From the sequence record MH560358: a stretch of 64,000 bases of DNA. The stretch is one strand, 5' to 3'. Of the stretch, positions 4,069 through 32,150 are shown in pieces. This DNA is from Escherichia virus KFS-EC. The notes beneath the pieces were generated by a model. That model was not told where the DNA came from. It did no database searches and saw only the letters and a list, made by a program, of their open reading frames with translations. Both the position numbers and the translations under genes were made by a program. The first letter of the stretch is position 1; every line of letters begins with the position of its first letter.

Positions 4069-4140
4069 ATTTTGATTCTCCTTTCGTTTGTTTGTGGGGG
4101 GTATCTTACTACCCCCGTTTCATGTTGTCAACTATTTTTA
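4069..4140 (-). promoter_or_regulatory. PeSL-like early promoter cassette
   Basis: TTGACA (4126-4131 minus), GGGGGTAGTAAGATACCCCCC inverted repeat, leader CAAACAAACGAAAGGAGAATCAAAATG. Confidence 0.55.
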
Positions 4141-4515
4141 AGAATATTTTACTTCGTCTACAATGTCTTTCATGACATTGATTTCCATTCCGGTCAGAAC
4201 ACGTTGGAACATGTGCTGCACATACGCTTTCAGGTATTCATTTGATGGCTTACTATCGAAAGTCTTTTTAGTGTAGTAGTCATCACCGAAAGCTACTGTA
4301 ATTACATTTTCGTCGTCGTTCCAAGCGATATAAGCAAATTTGCCGTTATCCCAGAAGCGAGCACTAATTGCTACTTTTGTTGAATCGAATCCTACTTCGC
4401 TGTGAGATTCAAGAACTACTTGCGTACCAGTTTCTTTATGAATGTAGTAGCGGGATACTAAGTCAAAGTTACGGGTGTAGTGACATTCGAATTTATCTTT
4501 AAACATCATCATCAT
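4138..4515 (-). CDS. hypothetical protein (125 aa)
   Basis: ORF preceded by PeSL-like cassette. Confidence 0.55.
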   Translation of the reverse strand: MMMMFKDKFECHYTRNFDLVSRYYIHKETGTQVVLESHSEVGFDSTKVAISARFWDNGKFAYIAWNDDENVITVAFGDDYYTKKTFDSKPSNEYLKAYVQHMFQRVLTGMEINVMKDIVDEVKYS

Positions 4516-4588
4516 TTTGATTCTCCTAAGTGTGTTTCGTTTCTATGTGTGCATTATGCTATAGTCGTTTATGGTTGTCAACACCTAA
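4516..4588 (-). promoter_or_regulatory. PeSL-like early promoter cassette
   Basis: TTGACA (4576-4581 minus), conserved leader and SD. Confidence 0.6.
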
Positions 4589-4592
4589 AAAC

Positions 4593-4618
4593 AAAAAACC
4601 CCGAAAAATTTTCGGGGT
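4593..4618 (-). terminator. intrinsic terminator (minus-strand orientation)
   Basis: CCCCGAAAA/TTTTCGGGG hairpin with T-run on minus strand, just downstream of the 57B-like gene. Confidence 0.6.
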
Positions 4619-4624
4619 ATAAAA

Positions 4625-5095
4625 TTACAGTTTGGTCGTCCACTCCAGGTCTAGATCTTCGACATACTCATGAGATCGGACAATCTCTAAATCGAACTCT
4701 AGGTCAGTGCCAAATTTACGCGCACCAACATCATAAGAAAGCGTGATATGCGGTACATATTCAGGATAATCCCACGTCGCACCTAAAGCAGTGCCGATAT
4801 CGTGTCTGAATTGCATGTAGTCGCTTTCAAATGCCAGCACAAGCGCATTAGTACCGGATTGAGTTTCAAACACTTTCAGATGGCATAGAGAGCCTAAGAA
4901 CTTCTCCCCTTCTTCTGGGATAAACGGAACATAGACACGAGAATATAAGATAGTGCTATGCAGTTTATCACGAGGAACGGCATTAGGCAGATCGTAGAAC
5001 TCCTGCAATTTTTCAATGCGGTCTAGTGTATCCTCAGTGAATTTAACCGCCGCATATGTACCTTTAACGGATTCTCTAAACGGGGTCATAATCAA
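4625..5095 (-). CDS. 57B: 2H-phosphoesterase-family protein, T4 57B-like
   Basis: Two H-x-T/S-x motifs (LHSTIL and PHITLS), the hallmark of 2H phosphoesterases; position immediately downstream of the 57A-like gene. Confidence 0.55.
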   Translation of the reverse strand: MIMTPFRESVKGTYAAVKFTEDTLDRIEKLQEFYDLPNAVPRDKLHSTILYSRVYVPFIPEEGEKFLGSLCHLKVFETQSGTNALVLAFESDYMQFRHDIGTALGATWDYPEYVPHITLSYDVGARKFGTDLEFDLEIVRSHEYVEDLDLEWTTKL

Positions 5096-24562: not shown

Positions 24563-26331
24563 TGATCGAACAATTAAACATTCGAAAGATCCCTAACGTC
24601 GATGGTGTCCCCGGAGAGGGACAACATTCTATTAGCTGGATTAAAAATGGTGAATGTCTAAGCGCAGCAACCACAGAAACAGGACACGAGGGGACGCTTA
24701 ACCGCGCCCCTTATGCGATTCAAGAAAATATTGTTCGTCTGGATGAAAATTCTAAGACAACGGTAACAAAAGTTAACGAAGTTGTTACAGCAGTTAATGA
24801 TATTAAAACTACTTTAGGCGCGGTTGCTGATGGTAGTATTATTGATATTGTCAATCAAACTATTGCAAAGGTTGAGTCTGTAGAAGAAAATTTAGGAGAA
24901 ACTTCAAGGACATTACAAACCACAGTAGATGAACTGGCGGAGACAGGAAAGAAAATTGGTGTTCGTCCGGCAGCAGATCCGAGTACACGAACAATATATG
25001 ATGATATTTCTTTCATCAAACAAGAATTGGGTGCTTTCCCTAACTTCAACATCAACGGTTATCCAGATCCAGGTAGTTCCGGTTCCGGTATCAAATATCG
25101 AGTTATCCAGAATACGGAAGCATTAAACAACCACGGTCAGCGAATCCGCCAACTAGAAAACGACTGGCAAGATTCTGACGTTGGAGAGCTAACAAAACAA
25201 GTTAACAAAATGCGAAGCGAGCTAGGCGACCCATCACTAGCAACACAGGACAATGTTTATCTTCGTCTTCGTACCAACACTCGCAATATCGCTAGTATAT
25301 CAAACGAAGTTCAGGAAGTAAAGAAAGCGATTCTATTTGAATCAATTCCTGATATCGGTACTAAAGTAACCAAGCTACAATCTGATTATACACAGCTTAA
25401 TGATGAAGTCAACGGCGTTGACGCTGGTATCCGTCCTCGTTTAACTCGTCTGGAAAATAAGATTGGCAATCCTCAATCCGCTGGAAGTATTGATTATCGA
25501 TTGACTAATCAAGAACGGGAATTTGTAGATCTTAAATCTATTGTCGGTTTCAGTGGTGCTGATGGCCTACGTGGTGAGGTTGCACGAATCACTAACACCG
25601 TCGGCACGGATAACGAGCGTCACACAATCGCTGGTCGACTGAAAATCGTCGAAAACACGCAAGGGCGTTTAGAAGCAAACGTGCAGGATATCGAGCAAAT
25701 GATCGGCAATCGAGATTCCGGTCTAATCGCTGGGGTTATTAAGCTGTCAAGCGACATGTACGGCAATCCAGAAGGAAGCACGCAGTTTGAACAAGATGGG
25801 ATCGTGAAAACTGTTAAGGCATTGAGCACGTCAAATGAAAGCAAGGTAACAGACGTTCCTGATGATGGGTTCCACTATCTCCGCAAACACGGAGAATGGG
25901 TCCAAGTTGCGTGGGCTGCTGGTGCATTTAAAAACACCACTCAGATTGATCTTACTCTAGACGAACAAGACCAATACAAAGGAATCCCGCTTACTGACAT
26001 GACCGCAGAAGTTCCAGTGCGTGGATTGGTTAAGAGCGAATCTCTTGTTACGGTTAACGACAAAGGCTTATTCCGTTGTGTTTTCCGTTGTTCTGTACAC
26101 GCGGCACATAACGCTACTTTCGTAGTCGGTATTGCTAAAAATGGTCAGATTGTACATGAGGTACGAAATGGTCATTATGGAACTGATGAATTAATTAGCT
26201 ATTCTACCAGTGCTTTCCTAAATATTGAAAAGGGCGACCGGATCGATATTCGTATTAAGGGTGTATCCGTAGAAGCATTAGCGCAACCGCTACAAATTAA
26301 AGAGTTCCTCTTTGGGATTTCTCCGGTATAA
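24562..26331 (+). CDS. wac: fibritin (whisker) with C-terminal extension
   Basis: N-terminus NVDGVPGEGQHSISWIKNGE, long coiled-coil-like middle, foldon-like FHYLRKHGEWVQV, then ~140 extra residues. Confidence 0.85.
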   Translation: MIEQLNIRKIPNVDGVPGEGQHSISWIKNGECLSAATTETGHEGTLNRAPYAIQENIVRLDENSKTTVTKVNEVVTAVNDIKTTLGAVADGSIIDIVNQTIAKVESVEENLGETSRTLQTTVDELAETGKKIGVRPAADPSTRTIYDDISFIKQELGAFPNFNINGYPDPGSSGSGIKYRVIQNTEALNNHGQRIRQLENDWQDSDVGELTKQVNKMRSELGDPSLATQDNVYLRLRTNTRNIASISNEVQEVKKAILFESIPDIGTKVTKLQSDYTQLNDEVNGVDAGIRPRLTRLENKIGNPQSAGSIDYRLTNQEREFVDLKSIVGFSGADGLRGEVARITNTVGTDNERHTIAGRLKIVENTQGRLEANVQDIEQMIGNRDSGLIAGVIKLSSDMYGNPEGSTQFEQDGIVKTVKALSTSNESKVTDVPDDGFHYLRKHGEWVQVAWAAGAFKNTTQIDLTLDEQDQYKGIPLTDMTAEVPVRGLVKSESLVTVNDKGLFRCVFRCSVHAAHNATFVVGIAKNGQIVHEVRNGHYGTDELISYSTSAFLNIEKGDRIDIRIKGVSVEALAQPLQIKEFLFGISPV

Positions 26332-26337
26332 GAAATT

Positions 26338-26361
26338 AAAGGGGCGTTAAGCCCCTTTTTC
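26338..26361 (+). terminator. intrinsic terminator after wac
   Basis: AAAGGGGCGTTAAGCCCCTTTTT. Confidence 0.65.
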
Positions 26362-26377
26362 GTTTATAGGTGATATT

Positions 26378-27310
26378 ATGTCAGGATATGTAACCAATAA
26401 CCCCAGAGAATTAAAAGACGCTATTCTGCGTCGTTTAGGCGCACCAGTAATTAACGTAGAAGTCACAGAAGACCAGATTTACGATTGTATTCAGAGAGCA
26501 CTAGAACTCTATGGAGAATATCATTTCGATGGTGTGAATAAAGGATATAAAGTATTTCGTGTTAGTGCAGAGCAAGCGCAACACGGGGTATTTGATTTAA
26601 GCGATTCTGGAGTATTCGCAGTAACTAAAATAATTCGAACAAACGTAGGTAGCGCGGCTACGATGGATGGTACTGCCGTTTATCCGTGGTTTACTGACTT
26701 TCTGTTGGGTTTAGCGGGTGTAAATGGCGGTTTAGGATCTGGCTGTAGTAAATTTTATGGTCCAAATGCAATGGGTGGTGATCTAGGATATTTCGAACAT
26801 CTTATGAGCTATAGAGCCACTATGCAAAATATGCTCAATCCGCTGCCAGATTACTGGTATAATAGCGCAAACGGACAACTTAAGATTACAGGAAACTTCC
26901 GAGAAGGTGATCTCATTGTTGTTGAATTATATGTTAAAAGCTATGTAGACGTTCCTGATATGATCGGCGCGGTTGCTGGTTATGCTCATGCGGGAGGATG
27001 TTCTACCGCTGGCGGGATTAGCGCCGTTTATGATAATCCAACTGCTGGTTTAAGCGGGATTGTTGCTGGCATGGGACCGATCAGTGAGAACAAGCAGGGC
27101 GCATATAATAACCGTTGGGTTAAAGACATGGCAACCGCTTTCACTAAGGAGGTGTGGGGGTCCATCATGGCTAAACATCAAGGTCTGCAATTACCCGGCG
27201 GTGTCACTGTTGATGGTATCCGAATCATTGAAGAAGCACGCGCCGACATTGAGAAATTGCGACAAGAACTACTTGACTTAGATCCACCATTTGGTATACT
27301 AATGATATAA
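26378..27310 (+). CDS. 13: neck protein gp13
   Basis: 310 aa; position and size. Confidence 0.7.
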
Positions 27311-27363
27311 AATAAATATGGGTATATGTTATCATATACCCTATGTAATATCGGAGATACTAA

Positions 27364-28179
27364 ATGGAACATTATGTATACAAAATAACCAACAAAATAA
27401 ACGATAAGATTTATGTCGGTGTTCGGTCTTGTGATGGATTAGCCGAAGACGATACAAAATACATGGGAAGTGGAAAAATAATAAAACAAGCTATTAAACA
27501 TCATGGATTAGAAAATTTCACCAAAGAGATATTGTCAAAATTTGATAGCAGAGAAGATGCGGATAAAGAAGAGGCAAGGATTGTTACGGTTGATTTTGTC
27601 AAGAGAGAAGACACGTATAATATAGCAGAAGGCGGTGGAACTGTTTGTATGTGGAAGGTTTCTGATGAAGCAAAGATAGAAGAAATGAGAAAAAAGATCT
27701 CAGAGAAAAATACTGGAAGAAAACATACTAAAGATACAAGACAAAAGATGTCCGCATCTCAAAAGGGAAGGAAGCATACGGAAGAAACAAAAGAAAAGAT
27801 GAGGCAAAATAACTTAGGAAAAGTTATTGCAGAAGAGACAAAAGAAAAGTTAAGGATGATTAATTTAGGAAAAAGACACACCGAAGAAACGCGAAGAAAA
27901 ATGTCTGATTCACATAAGGGTCTATCCTTATCCGATGAGGTGAAGGATAAGATAAGACAAAAACACACAGGACGTGTTTTTACTAAAGAATGGAGAGAAA
28001 GAATTAGCAAATCTAGAATCGGAATAACTAGCACTAGATCAAGAAGAATAAGCATCAACGGAGTGATATACAATAGCATAGGAGAAGCTGTTATAAAATT
28101 AAACGTTAAGAGAGGATTGATTGTCGGAAGACTTAAATCAAATACCGATAAAAACAAAAATTATTTCTTCGTAGATTAA
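27364..28179 (+). CDS. GIY-YIG homing endonuclease with NUMOD3-like repeats
   Basis: N-terminal YVYKITNKINDKIYVGV (GIY-YIG) and repeated GRKHTxET(K/R)xKM motifs. Confidence 0.8.
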   Translation: MEHYVYKITNKINDKIYVGVRSCDGLAEDDTKYMGSGKIIKQAIKHHGLENFTKEILSKFDSREDADKEEARIVTVDFVKREDTYNIAEGGGTVCMWKVSDEAKIEEMRKKISEKNTGRKHTKDTRQKMSASQKGRKHTEETKEKMRQNNLGKVIAEETKEKLRMINLGKRHTEETRRKMSDSHKGLSLSDEVKDKIRQKHTGRVFTKEWRERISKSRIGITSTRSRRISINGVIYNSIGEAVIKLNVKRGLIVGRLKSNTDKNKNYFFVD

Positions 28180-28215
28180 TAAATTGGGGGAATACTCCCC
28201 CATTTGGAGTAACAT

Positions 28216-28956
28216 ATGTTTAACAACACTCTTTTTGCTCGCCTTGAATCGCAGAAGGACTACGAGAATACACGACAAACAGAGATTTTAAATCCGTGGG
28301 TGAATTTTAATTCACATACAAACACCCAGACGTTAGCCGACGTTATGGTCGCCGAAGCTATTCAGATGCGAGGTGTAGAATTATATTACATCCCTCGTGA
28401 ATTTGTCAAACCAGATATGATATTTGGTGAGGATGTTCAAAGCAAATTTACTAAAGCATGGAAATTTGCGGCTTATATTAACTCATTTGATGGGTATGAA
28501 GGAGCGGGTAACTTCTTCTCTAGTTTCGGTTATCAAGCCAATGATGAACTAACTTTTACGGTTAACCCCAACCTATTCAAGCATCAAGTAGATGATCAAG
28601 AGCCAAAATCAGGTGACTTAATTTATATTCCAATGAGTAATGATCTCTTTGAAATTAATTACGTCGAGCCATATCAGCCGTTTTTTCAGGCTGGCAAAAA
28701 TGCCATGCGTAAAATTATTGCAGAGAAATTCGTGTATAGCGGTGAGGAATTGCGACCAGAATTACAACGCAATGAGGGAATTAATGTTGATGAGTTTGCG
28801 GATCTGGACCTTGCACCGATCACTAATCTGGACGGATTAACAGATATCAACTTAGAACAGTACAAAGAAGATAAGCAATTCAGAAGCGAAGGACAAGATT
28901 TTATTGACCCGTTTGATCCTATTAATGGCAAGGGTTCACCTTTTGCTAATTTTTGA
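28216..28956 (+). CDS. 14: neck protein gp14
   Basis: 246 aa; position and size. Confidence 0.7.
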
Positions 28957-28982
28957 TAAATACTCATAAACAAGGGGGTCAA

Positions 28983-29816
28983 ATGTTCGGTTGGCACTAT
29001 AATTCGTCAATTAGACGGTATATTGTATTGCTGGGTAATTTATTCTCCGGCGTACAAATTAAAAGGGTGCGTAGTGACGGTGAGCGGTTTATTAAAGTTC
29101 CTATCACCTACGCAAAGAAAGAAAAATTCATGATGAGTCTGGACAAATATAACAATATCTCAAGTGAGGAAGACGTAGCAAAGGTAGAAACTATTTTACC
29201 GCGCATGTGTCTTTCTTTGATTGATATGACATACGCCCAGAACTTTAAAACCAATATTGCAAATAAGACAGTTCCAAAATATACGGCTGATGGAATAAGG
29301 AGCGTAACACAATATAACCCCGTACCATATAAGTTTACCTTCGAGTTGGGGATTTATACACGTAACGAAGATGATATGTTTCAGATAATTGAACAGATTC
29401 TTCCTTACTTCCAGCCTCATTTTAACTGTAAGATTAAAGAACTACACGGTAATGATGTATGGATTGATCGAGATATTCAGGTCACAATTAGTTCTATTAC
29501 TCCAGATGAACAGGTAGGCGAAGATAAGTTTTCTCGTCGTCGTCTTGAGTGGACCATTATGTTTGAGTTCATCGGGTTTATCTATCCTCCAGCTACCGAC
29601 GTTAAGGGGGAAATCAGAACGATTTATCTTGATTTTCATGCTAATTCTCGTGAATTAAATCCTAGCGGTAATTTTGAATCGGTGGACCATGAAGTTGTTA
29701 AACGTGACGTCGAGCAAGAAGAATGGGATGGAACTGTCAAAGAATCATATTCTAGTGATATTCCAATACCAGTTGCACCAACTCCACCGGGTCCACGTAT
29801 TGTAAGAGAATTTTAA
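28983..29816 (+). CDS. 15: tail sheath stabiliser / tail terminator gp15
   Basis: Start at MFGWHYNSSIRRY (AGGGGG SD), similar to recalled T4 gp15 N-terminus. Confidence 0.75.
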   Translation: MFGWHYNSSIRRYIVLLGNLFSGVQIKRVRSDGERFIKVPITYAKKEKFMMSLDKYNNISSEEDVAKVETILPRMCLSLIDMTYAQNFKTNIANKTVPKYTADGIRSVTQYNPVPYKFTFELGIYTRNEDDMFQIIEQILPYFQPHFNCKIKELHGNDVWIDRDIQVTISSITPDEQVGEDKFSRRRLEWTIMFEFIGFIYPPATDVKGEIRTIYLDFHANSRELNPSGNFESVDHEVVKRDVEQEEWDGTVKESYSSDIPIPVAPTPPGPRIVREF

Positions 29817-29829
29817 GAGGTAATTTATT

Positions 29830-32150
<2,321 letters not shown>

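Follow-up and report, generated by a model that had tools for sequence, protein, structure and literature searches.

What is a 271-residue open reading frame (ORF) doing in the neck region of a T4-like phage, between genes 13 and 14, and what keeps it at that place? In Escherichia virus KFS-EC (sequence record MH560358), of which a stretch of 64,000 nucleotides was analyzed (referred to here as the window), such an ORF occupies exactly positions 27364–28179 of the plus strand and is intergenic, with both neck genes complete. We conclude that it is probably a functional, free-standing homing endonuclease gene of the GIY-YIG class and the Seg type, closest to SegA–E and built like I-TevI, which is carried on a cassette of ~0.9 kb at the 13/14 junction. 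The domain architecture, the conserved catalytic residues, the fixed insertion site, the polymorphism of the junction, the purifying selection on the protein, and the low diversity of the cassette are the observations behind this assignment.

A Seg-type ORF between genes 13 and 14

The ORF product begins with MEHYVYKITNKINDKIYVGV, in which an initial annotation, made from the letters of the DNA alone, had recognized a GIY-YIG motif. That reading holds. The protein matches the SegE_GIY-YIG profile of Pfam (PF19835, E=9e-6, residues 4–79), the family PHROG 314 "homing endonuclease" (4.9e-59), and TIGR01453 (1.5e-21, 77.4 bits, with a cut-off of 56). The Pfam comparison that had been suggested alongside also returned NUMOD3 (PF07460, E=2.2e-12) and, at residues 221–268, the I-TevI DNA-binding profile I-TevI_DNA-bd (E=2.9e-6), and all three Pfam matches exceed the curated cut-offs. 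Tandem NUMOD3-like repeats had likewise been noted. They are present, and their number is to be corrected from four to six, each of 17 residues, starting at G118, G135, G152, G169, G186, and G203. The array is also seen in the DNA as direct repeats with a spacing of 51 nt.

A search of the Protein Data Bank (PDB) with the single sequence of the ORF product gave only weak matches (E=0.17). When a profile of 42 homologues was compared with the PDB, the catalytic domain of I-TevI (1LN0, E=7.7e-10) and its DNA-binding domain (1I3J, E=6.1e-8) were both found. Residues Tyr-6, Tyr-17, Gly-19, and Glu-70 are invariant among the 42 homologues, and Asn-86 is at least 90% conserved; in the alignment these residues pair with Tyr-6, Tyr-17, Gly-19, Glu-75, and Asn-90 of I-TevI. 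They correspond to the tyrosine of GIY, the tyrosine and glycine of YIG, the metal-binding glutamate, and the asparagine typical of such domains. An AlphaFold2 model of the ORF product has a mean predicted local distance difference test (pLDDT) score of 90.9, with values of 95–98 for the GIY-YIG domain and above 90 for the six repeat helices and the C-terminal β-β-helix-turn-helix. The model consists of the α/β GIY-YIG domain (residues 1–94), a short disordered hinge (residues 95–99), a helix (residues 102–116), six evenly spaced repeat helices, one for each 17-residue repeat, and the β-β-helix-turn-helix (residues 228–270). The best solved structures found by Foldseek were 1MK0 (top) and 1I3J (probability 1.00). 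The protein has the three-module build of a GIY-YIG domain, NUMOD3 helices, and a separate C-terminal helix-turn-helix. Homing endonucleases of the I-TevI/Seg type are characterized by site-specific double-strand cleavage that leaves 2-nt 3' overhangs.

In a search of 5.8 billion proteins, the ORF product fell into a single tight cluster of 13 members with at least 90% identity, and the next matches reached 47% at most. The closest T4 protein is SegB (39% identity over 191 residues, E=5e-30), followed by SegD (E=1e-25), SegC (E=1e-22), SegE (E=3e-21), and SegA (E=1e-18). The N-terminal motif YxYKITNKINxKIYIGV...YMGSG is shared with SegA–E. Like SegB, the protein is encoded by a free-standing, intergenic gene of a T4-like phage that is not found in close relatives. 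Unlike SegB, it belongs to the genus Krischvirus and to the 13/14 locus, and it is 50 residues longer because of its six NUMOD3 repeats. In addition, no promoter is located near the 5' end of segB (PMC2330249), whereas the window cassette has a recoded gene 13 end with a promoter-like sequence, as described below. With I-TevI the protein shares the GIY-YIG domain, an extended linker or minor-groove region, and the C-terminal helix-turn-helix, but the two are only 24% identical end to end, the window protein is not intron-encoded, and it has no evident zinc finger. I-TevI contains a single NUMOD3-type element, compared with the six found here.

Occupancy of the junction and spread of the cassette

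The ORF is part of a T4-like neck module with the gene order tail collar fibre, fibritin (wac), gp13, ORF, gp14, gp15, gp16, and gp17. Its placement between neck genes 13 and 14 stands, gp13 being recognized by phrog_211 and gp14 by PF11649. The RB49 13–14 segment was used as a query to compare the junction in 56 records of Krischvirus, the RB49-like coliphages. The ORF region is 95–98% identical to Krischvirus coliphages, and the flanks of carriers and empty genomes are 95–99% identical.

The junction is empty, with a span of 1710–1712 bp, in 41 of the 56 records, RB49 among them. It is occupied in the other 15, always by a GIY-YIG ORF. The ORF of the window (type A) is found in five records (Ec_Makalu_001, Ec_Makalu_002, MIZ4, MIZ5, and PHB13), and the remaining 10 hold three other types: a 311-residue ORF in E26 (type B, one record), a 194-residue ORF annotated as "segC" in six records represented by Phi1, ECD7, kvi, and phiS (type C), and a 214-residue SegF-like ORF in G37-3, G5211, and, in frameshifted form, Brandy (type D, three records). 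The initial annotation had proposed a Seg-like mobile insertion and a comparison of the junction in relatives. The comparison gives presence/absence polymorphism instead of fixed presence and, together with SegB as the closest T4 paralogue, bears the proposal out. With four GIY-YIG genes at one junction and dozens of sequenced genomes, most of them with an empty site, the locus offers a natural experiment on a compact scale.

The proteins of types B, C, and D are 30–45% identical to the window protein. Those of E26, ECD7, and G37-3 match TIGR01453 (G37-3 below its curated cut-off) as well as the SegE GIY-YIG and/or I-TevI DNA-binding profiles of Pfam. The ORFs of phi1 and ECD7, of E26, and of G37-3, G5211, and Brandy are of the GIY-YIG/I-TevI type, and they share the junction and the genus with that of the window. 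The insertion points of the four types differ by a few nucleotides. In types B, C, and D the insert overlaps the start of gene 14 or takes its place, and the native G5/C5 hairpin of the intergenic region (Table 1) is either lost or interrupted; type A leaves both untouched and has a rewritten gene 13 end instead. The type D ORF (G37-3, G5211, and Brandy) sits inside the loop of the native hairpin. At each occupied junction the ends of flanking genes are recoded, and the three cassettes of other types that were scanned (E26, ECD7, and G37-3) have a promoter-like site directly upstream. Scans of IMG/VR with gp14 (three loci) and with the Seg protein (four loci) as queries yielded no further carriers of the window ORF; one of the gp14 loci, L006, carries a type C ORF. 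In Brandy (L029, positions 1134–1794), the type D ORF has lost 1 nt by deletion, in comparison with G37-3, and is accompanied by an RB49-type gene 13 end; it looks like a decaying copy at the shared hotspot.

The identical protein is labeled "putative Seg-like homing endonuclease, GIY-YIG family" (Ec_Makalu_001) and "homing endonuclease" (KFS-EC) in GenBank, and phi1 segC was listed in 2010 as a difference between phi1 and RB49 (PMC2839356). The Seg-like label and the presence of segC at this site in phi1 were known already, and the kind of gene is well known. What the present analysis adds is the count of genomes at a hotspot shared by four endonuclease types, the recoded block with its sharp limits, and the predicted target, immunity, and promoter.

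Carriers for the diversity analysis came from the GenBank phage collection and from Logan/ENA contigs. Among 23 public contigs encoding the identical protein, the 10 places shown all have it between genes 13 and 14. The mean pairwise diversity of 14 carriers is 0.0063 in the recoded block and 0.0095 in the ORF, as opposed to 0.0415 in the gene 13 body and 0.0617 in gene 14, so that the cassette is 4–6 times less diverse than the flanking genes. Relative to the window, 12 carriers differ by 0–2 nt in the 816-nt ORF, by 18–56 nt in gene 13, and by 3–78 nt in gene 14; the flanks of 12 genomes with a near-identical cassette differ by 2–10%. The tract shared with the window ends variably, between 27088 and 27262 on the left and between 28192 and 28944 on the right, as would be expected if repeated conversion events with variable tract lengths had left their trace. 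The variable codons of five alleles comprise 30 synonymous and 5 non-synonymous ones, which indicates that the protein is under purifying selection. Taken together, the low diversity of the cassette and the codon changes argue for an intact gene that has recently spread over different backgrounds.

The recoded end of gene 13 and the predicted promoter

The 3' end of gene 13 differs sharply between carriers and empty genomes. When five carriers were compared with 11 empty genomes over 1710 shared columns, 13 of the 14 fixed differences were located at 27272–27309, and the remaining one at 28181. The divergence between carriers and empty genomes is 0.35 in the recoded stretch, compared with 0.048 in the rest of gene 13 and 0.050 in gene 14. 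Two residues of gp13 are changed (E299L and L300D). After L300D, each codon that permits a synonymous change carries one, all seven in the third position (CCT->CCA, CCG->CCA, TTC->TTT, GGC->GGT, ATC->ATA, CTC->CTA, and ATT->ATA), and the stop codon is changed from TGA to TAA. The block is invariant in the 14 carriers at the level of diversity given above. Judging from the alignment, the mobile unit includes the final 39–42 nt of gene 13, and the cassette would extend from about 27272 to about 28183.

In the empty genomes, the corresponding end of gene 13 (42 nt, equivalent to 27269–27310) is only 7% diverged in a lineage whose divergence elsewhere is 16%. It is conserved at synonymous sites too, far above the rest of the gene, which implies a constraint at the nucleotide level. 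E26 has its own, different recoding of the gene 13 end (27%, versus 7% in the gene body), and type C recodes the first 45 nt of gene 14 instead (33%). Such a pattern would be expected of nuclease targets that are disarmed in the carrier. The block found in the window also occurs with a different seg ORF, that of type D, in G37-3 and G5211, and seg-less JSE has only the half of it that contains TTGACT.

Of the 14 substitutions in the block, eight build a promoter-like site, raising the match to the sigma-70 consensus from 3/12 to 10/12. In a consensus scan, this predicted promoter has 10 of 12 matches plus the TG of an extended -10 element, and transcription would be expected to start near 27307. 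On the plus strand of the 64-kb window there are 16 sites with at least 10 of 12 matches, five of them with the TG. The site was not found in the two empty junctions that were scanned (RB49 and JSE). A promoter-like site is present directly upstream of the ORF in three of the four cassette types; within type D it occurs only in G37-3, and in G5211, which shares the block. In types B and C, a strong hairpin (z=-4.7 and -4.3, respectively) encloses the promoter-like site. From these sequence comparisons, a match by coincidence appears unlikely. As for the T4-type late promoter (TATAAATA), none of its 10 exact matches in the window is near the ORF, and versions with 1–2 mismatches overlap the gene 13 stop codon.

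The remaining substitutions in the block remove the sole CNNNG motif from the gene 13 end, CTCCG at 27285–27289 in the empty-site allele being CACCA in the seg+ allele. The motif lies ~20 nt upstream of the insertion point, a distance similar to the 23–25 nt spacing of I-TevI. By this analogy CTCCG might be a cleavage motif, which is speculation.

If the window protein acts like T4 SegB, SegE, SegF, and SegG, it would cut the seg-less 13/14 junction of a co-infecting phage in a mixed infection. After resection of the break, the recombination machinery of the phage would use the seg+ genome as the template for repair, and the repair would copy in the cassette together with variable lengths of its flanks. 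This is the homing mechanism of the T4 seg genes, intronless homing with co-conversion (PMC2988022, PMC2330249). The target may lie in or beside the last ~40 nt of gene 13, where we place it because empty genomes conserve these nucleotides to an unusual degree and the seg+ allele has them rewritten. The rewritten gene 13 end plus the insertion would confer self-immunity, and the block promoter would give early synthesis of the endonuclease, independent of late transcription of the neck genes. In T4-like phages, marker exclusion and mosaicism are shaped by free-standing homing endonucleases, which are also candidates for use as parts of nucleases for genome editing. Krischvirus phages are under development for therapy, and the cassette may sweep among co-infecting phages, dragging neck-gene sequence along.

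A more far-reaching version of this model, which we put forward tentatively and consider possible but doubtful, treats the 39-nt gene 13 end as a separable dual module that combines loss of the target, and hence self-immunity, with an early sigma-70 promoter embedded in the coding part of a late structural gene. The module would have been captured by the unrelated, SegF-like gene of G37-3 and G5211, and at least four homing endonuclease genes would compete and exchange modules for immunity and expression at the 13/14 junction. The endonuclease may also repress itself: because the promoter derives from the target sequence, the protein may bind the block without cutting it. I-TevI represses itself at its own operator/promoter.

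Alternative explanations and boundaries of the insert

Several points weigh against a homing endonuclease gene with the target and promoter proposed here. Cleavage, target, and homing of the window protein are what we infer from analogy and sequence pattern. T4 free-standing endonucleases often cut hundreds of base pairs from their own genes (PMC2988022), and a target outside the recoded block is therefore conceivable. The equivalent of I-TevI Arg-27, the conserved catalytic arginine that follows YIG, cannot be placed, since the region is an insertion or gap in the profile alignment; the ORF product has Arg-21 where T4 SegA–E have a histidine, and there is no column of at least 90% conservation there. 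The putative promoter is a consensus match, of a kind that occurs about once per 4 kb on the plus strand, and its -35 and -10 elements lie inside coding sequence. The block is separable from the window ORF, as G37-3 and G5211, JSE with its half, and Brandy with a type D ORF and no block illustrate. It could be the remnant of a divergent donor's gene 13 and not a selected immunity; a search for a divergent donor phage with a gene 13 end matching the block gave Krischvirus matches only. Finally, ordinary recombination that reshuffles the flanks could also produce low cassette diversity.

In an alternative reading, the cassette is moved by general or stem-loop recombination, with the ORF as mere cargo and the G5/C5 stem-loop as the recombinogenic hotspot. 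RB49 and phi1 shuffle ORFs by way of promoter-early stem-loop (PeSL) cassettes, which were described for these two phages and whose crossovers were mapped in the loops of the stem-loops (PMC2839356). A PeSL was defined here as an intergenic unit of an upstream stop codon, an AT-rich tract, sigma-70 -35 and -10 elements with a stem-loop, a Shine-Dalgarno sequence, and an ATG. Types B and C, with the promoter in the hairpin, are textbook PeSLs and fit the definition better than type A of the window. Type A shares with PeSLs the sigma-70-like promoter, stem-loop, Shine-Dalgarno sequence, and ATG before a variable ORF; unlike in canonical PeSL cassettes, its -35 and -10 elements are in the coding end of gene 13, with the stop codon after the -10, and its stem is A/T-rich with G3/C3 ends in place of the G4-5/C4-5 stems of PeSLs. 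Further support comes from the exact insertion of type D within the loop of the native G5/C5 hairpin, from the two inverted states of both hairpin loops flanking the window cassette, which suggest template-switching activity, and from the occurrence of the recoded block with another ORF. On this account, however, it is hard to see why four of four occupants should be GIY-YIG endonucleases and not random ORFans if their activity is irrelevant. The strong purifying selection on the ORF, its intact catalytic residues, and the independent recoding of a conserved gene 13 end in two cassettes, as for nuclease targets, also speak against it, and we regard recombination of a mere cargo as unlikely. 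The two mechanisms are compatible: stem-loop recombination could account for the first entry of a cassette, as type D occupies the native hairpin loop, and homing for the spread.

It is more improbable still that the protein has ceased to be a mobility nuclease, having been retained as a DNA-binding or regulatory protein, such as a repressor of its own or adjacent transcription in the manner of I-TevI at its own promoter, or persisting as a neutral, decaying passenger. The long DNA-binding region of six NUMOD3 repeats and the helix-turn-helix does dominate the protein, Arg-27 has no assignable equivalent, the promoter-like block derived from a likely target could be an operator, and the frameshift in Brandy demonstrates that decay occurs at this site. 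Nevertheless, the catalytic tyrosines, glutamate, and asparagine are conserved, the GIY-YIG domain is modeled with the high confidence given above, and the 30:5 ratio of synonymous to non-synonymous codons spans the catalytic domain as well. That diverged genomes share an almost identical cassette points to a recent spread and not to slow decay. The name of TIGR01453, "group I intron endonuclease," which some GenBank records use for ORFs at this site, would suggest that genes 13 and 14 are one fused gene, interrupted by a group I intron in which the endonuclease is encoded. To this we attach next to no probability, and the gene structure rules it out: every phage, T4 included, has genes 13 and 14 as two separate genes, each with a stop and start of its own (in T4 they are uninterrupted and 1 nt apart), and the flank of the ORF is a short untranslated region (UTR) with a Shine-Dalgarno sequence. 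No Rfam match to a group I intron or other RNA family reached the threshold in 26000–29500, even at E<=1, and since intron RNA is not detectable the ORF is free-standing like the T4 seg genes. A functional, free-standing Seg-type gene therefore remains the preferred reading.

The features of the locus are collected in Table 1. In the alignment with empty sites, the insert is placed between the gene 13 end and the intergenic G5/C5 hairpin, which forms its right-hand boundary. The ORF had initially been described as flanked by its own hairpins. For the upstream stem-loop this is correct, as it is missing from the empty junctions in the alignment; the downstream hairpin is native and not the cassette's, because every ORF-less genome also has TGGGGGA-nnnn-TCCCCCA. 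A hairpin of the I-TevI/MobE kind that sequesters the ribosome-binding site (RBS) was also sought; in the predicted fold, the Shine-Dalgarno sequence of the ORF is unpaired and has no part in the cassette hairpin.

Table 1. Features of the 13/14 region in the window
Feature	Position	Strand	Description and basis
Gene 13, neck protein / head-tail adaptor	26378..27310	+	310 aa; phrog_211 (head-tail adaptor Ad2) E=5.7e-40; gene 13 in RB49
Recoded gene 13 3' end travelling with the cassette	27272..27310	+	14 differences from the empty-site allele
Sigma-70-type promoter, predicted	27273..27300	+	-35 TTGACT 27273-27278, 16-nt spacer, extended -10 TGgTATACT 27292-27300
Cassette-specific 5'-UTR stem-loop	27320..27341	+	GGGTATATG-TTAT-CATATACCC; -12.9 kcal/mol, z=-3.8
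Shine-Dalgarno GGAG of the seg ORF	27353..27356	+	7 nt before ATG; RBS annotated in Makalu_001
Seg-like homing endonuclease ORF	27364..28179	+	271 aa; Pfam, PHROG 314, TIGR01453 matches
GIY-YIG catalytic domain	27364..27645	+	aa 1-94; conserved columns, 1LN0 profile match, Foldseek 1MK0
Six tandem 17-aa NUMOD3 repeats	27715..28020	+	aa 118-219; consensus G[RK]xHTEETKxKM; Pfam NUMOD3, model helices
I-TevI-type C-terminal helix-turn-helix	28024..28167	+	aa 221-268; PF20987 E=2.9e-6, 1I3J
Native 13/14 intergenic G5/C5 hairpin	28185..28202	+	TGGGGGA-ATAC-TCCCCCA; in RB49, all empty sites
Gene 14, neck protein / head closure	28216..28956	+	246 aa; PF11649 E=2.5e-101

Both hairpin loops occur in two states among the 14 carriers. 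The loop at 27329–27332 is TTAT in 10 of them and ATAA in four; the window, L036, and L037 have ATAC at 28192–28195, where the remaining carriers and nearly all empty sites have GTAT. The two states of each loop are exact reverse complements, and the outer two loop bases always co-vary in the carriers, even between cassettes that are 1 nt apart in 816. This pattern suggests that the loops are inverted when the template is switched at the palindromes. At the second hairpin, the loop reads ATAT in one divergent empty genome, and a stepwise change is also possible there. An alternative hairpin at 28193–28211, in which TACTCC pairs with GGAGTA of the gene 14 Shine-Dalgarno region, excludes formation of the G5/C5 hairpin and might natively switch the translation of gene 14.

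A 12-nt direct repeat flanks the cassette, with TCCACCATTTGG at 27283–27294 and TCCCCCATTTGG at 28196–28207, 913 nt apart. The recoding of gene 13 lifted the match between its arms from 9/12 to 11/12. It is probably due to chance; as a target-site duplication or excision site it was rejected, for it matches at only 11 of 12 positions, is of a size expected by chance, and has one arm in coding sequence, and recombination between the arms would truncate gp13. A hypervariable patch in gene 14 at 28279–28326 (gp14 residues ~22–37) reads PWVNFNSH in the window and PYVNFHKY, NFNRH, or NFNSH elsewhere. It was rejected as a co-conversion tract, since seg-less phages vary equally there.

On the minus strand, a perfect sigma-70 consensus (TTGACA-18-TATAAT) is present at 28409..28380, directed antisense through the start of gene 14, and this stretch is invariant in four aligned genomes. 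Read on the same strand (28202..28185), the native hairpin scores as terminator-like. From such a promoter and hairpin, a short antisense RNA covering the gene 14 start might be made early.

A second optional gene of the GIY-YIG/I-TevI type (251 residues) is located between genes 14 and 15 in MIZ4 (L012, positions 4120–4875), and also in JSE, G2494, L033, and L037; the window is without it between 28956 and gene 15. Gene 17, which encodes the large terminase, is 2817 nt long in Makalu_002/003, FL15, L031, and L032, with a product of 938–939 residues and a faint LAGLIDADG match, which probably reflects an intein. The gp17 of the window (30324–32147) has 607 residues and is without the extra segment. 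The 14/15 endonuclease gene occurs independently of the 13/14 cassette and, in the contigs that encode the identical Seg-like protein, both this gene and the long gp17 vary independently of it.

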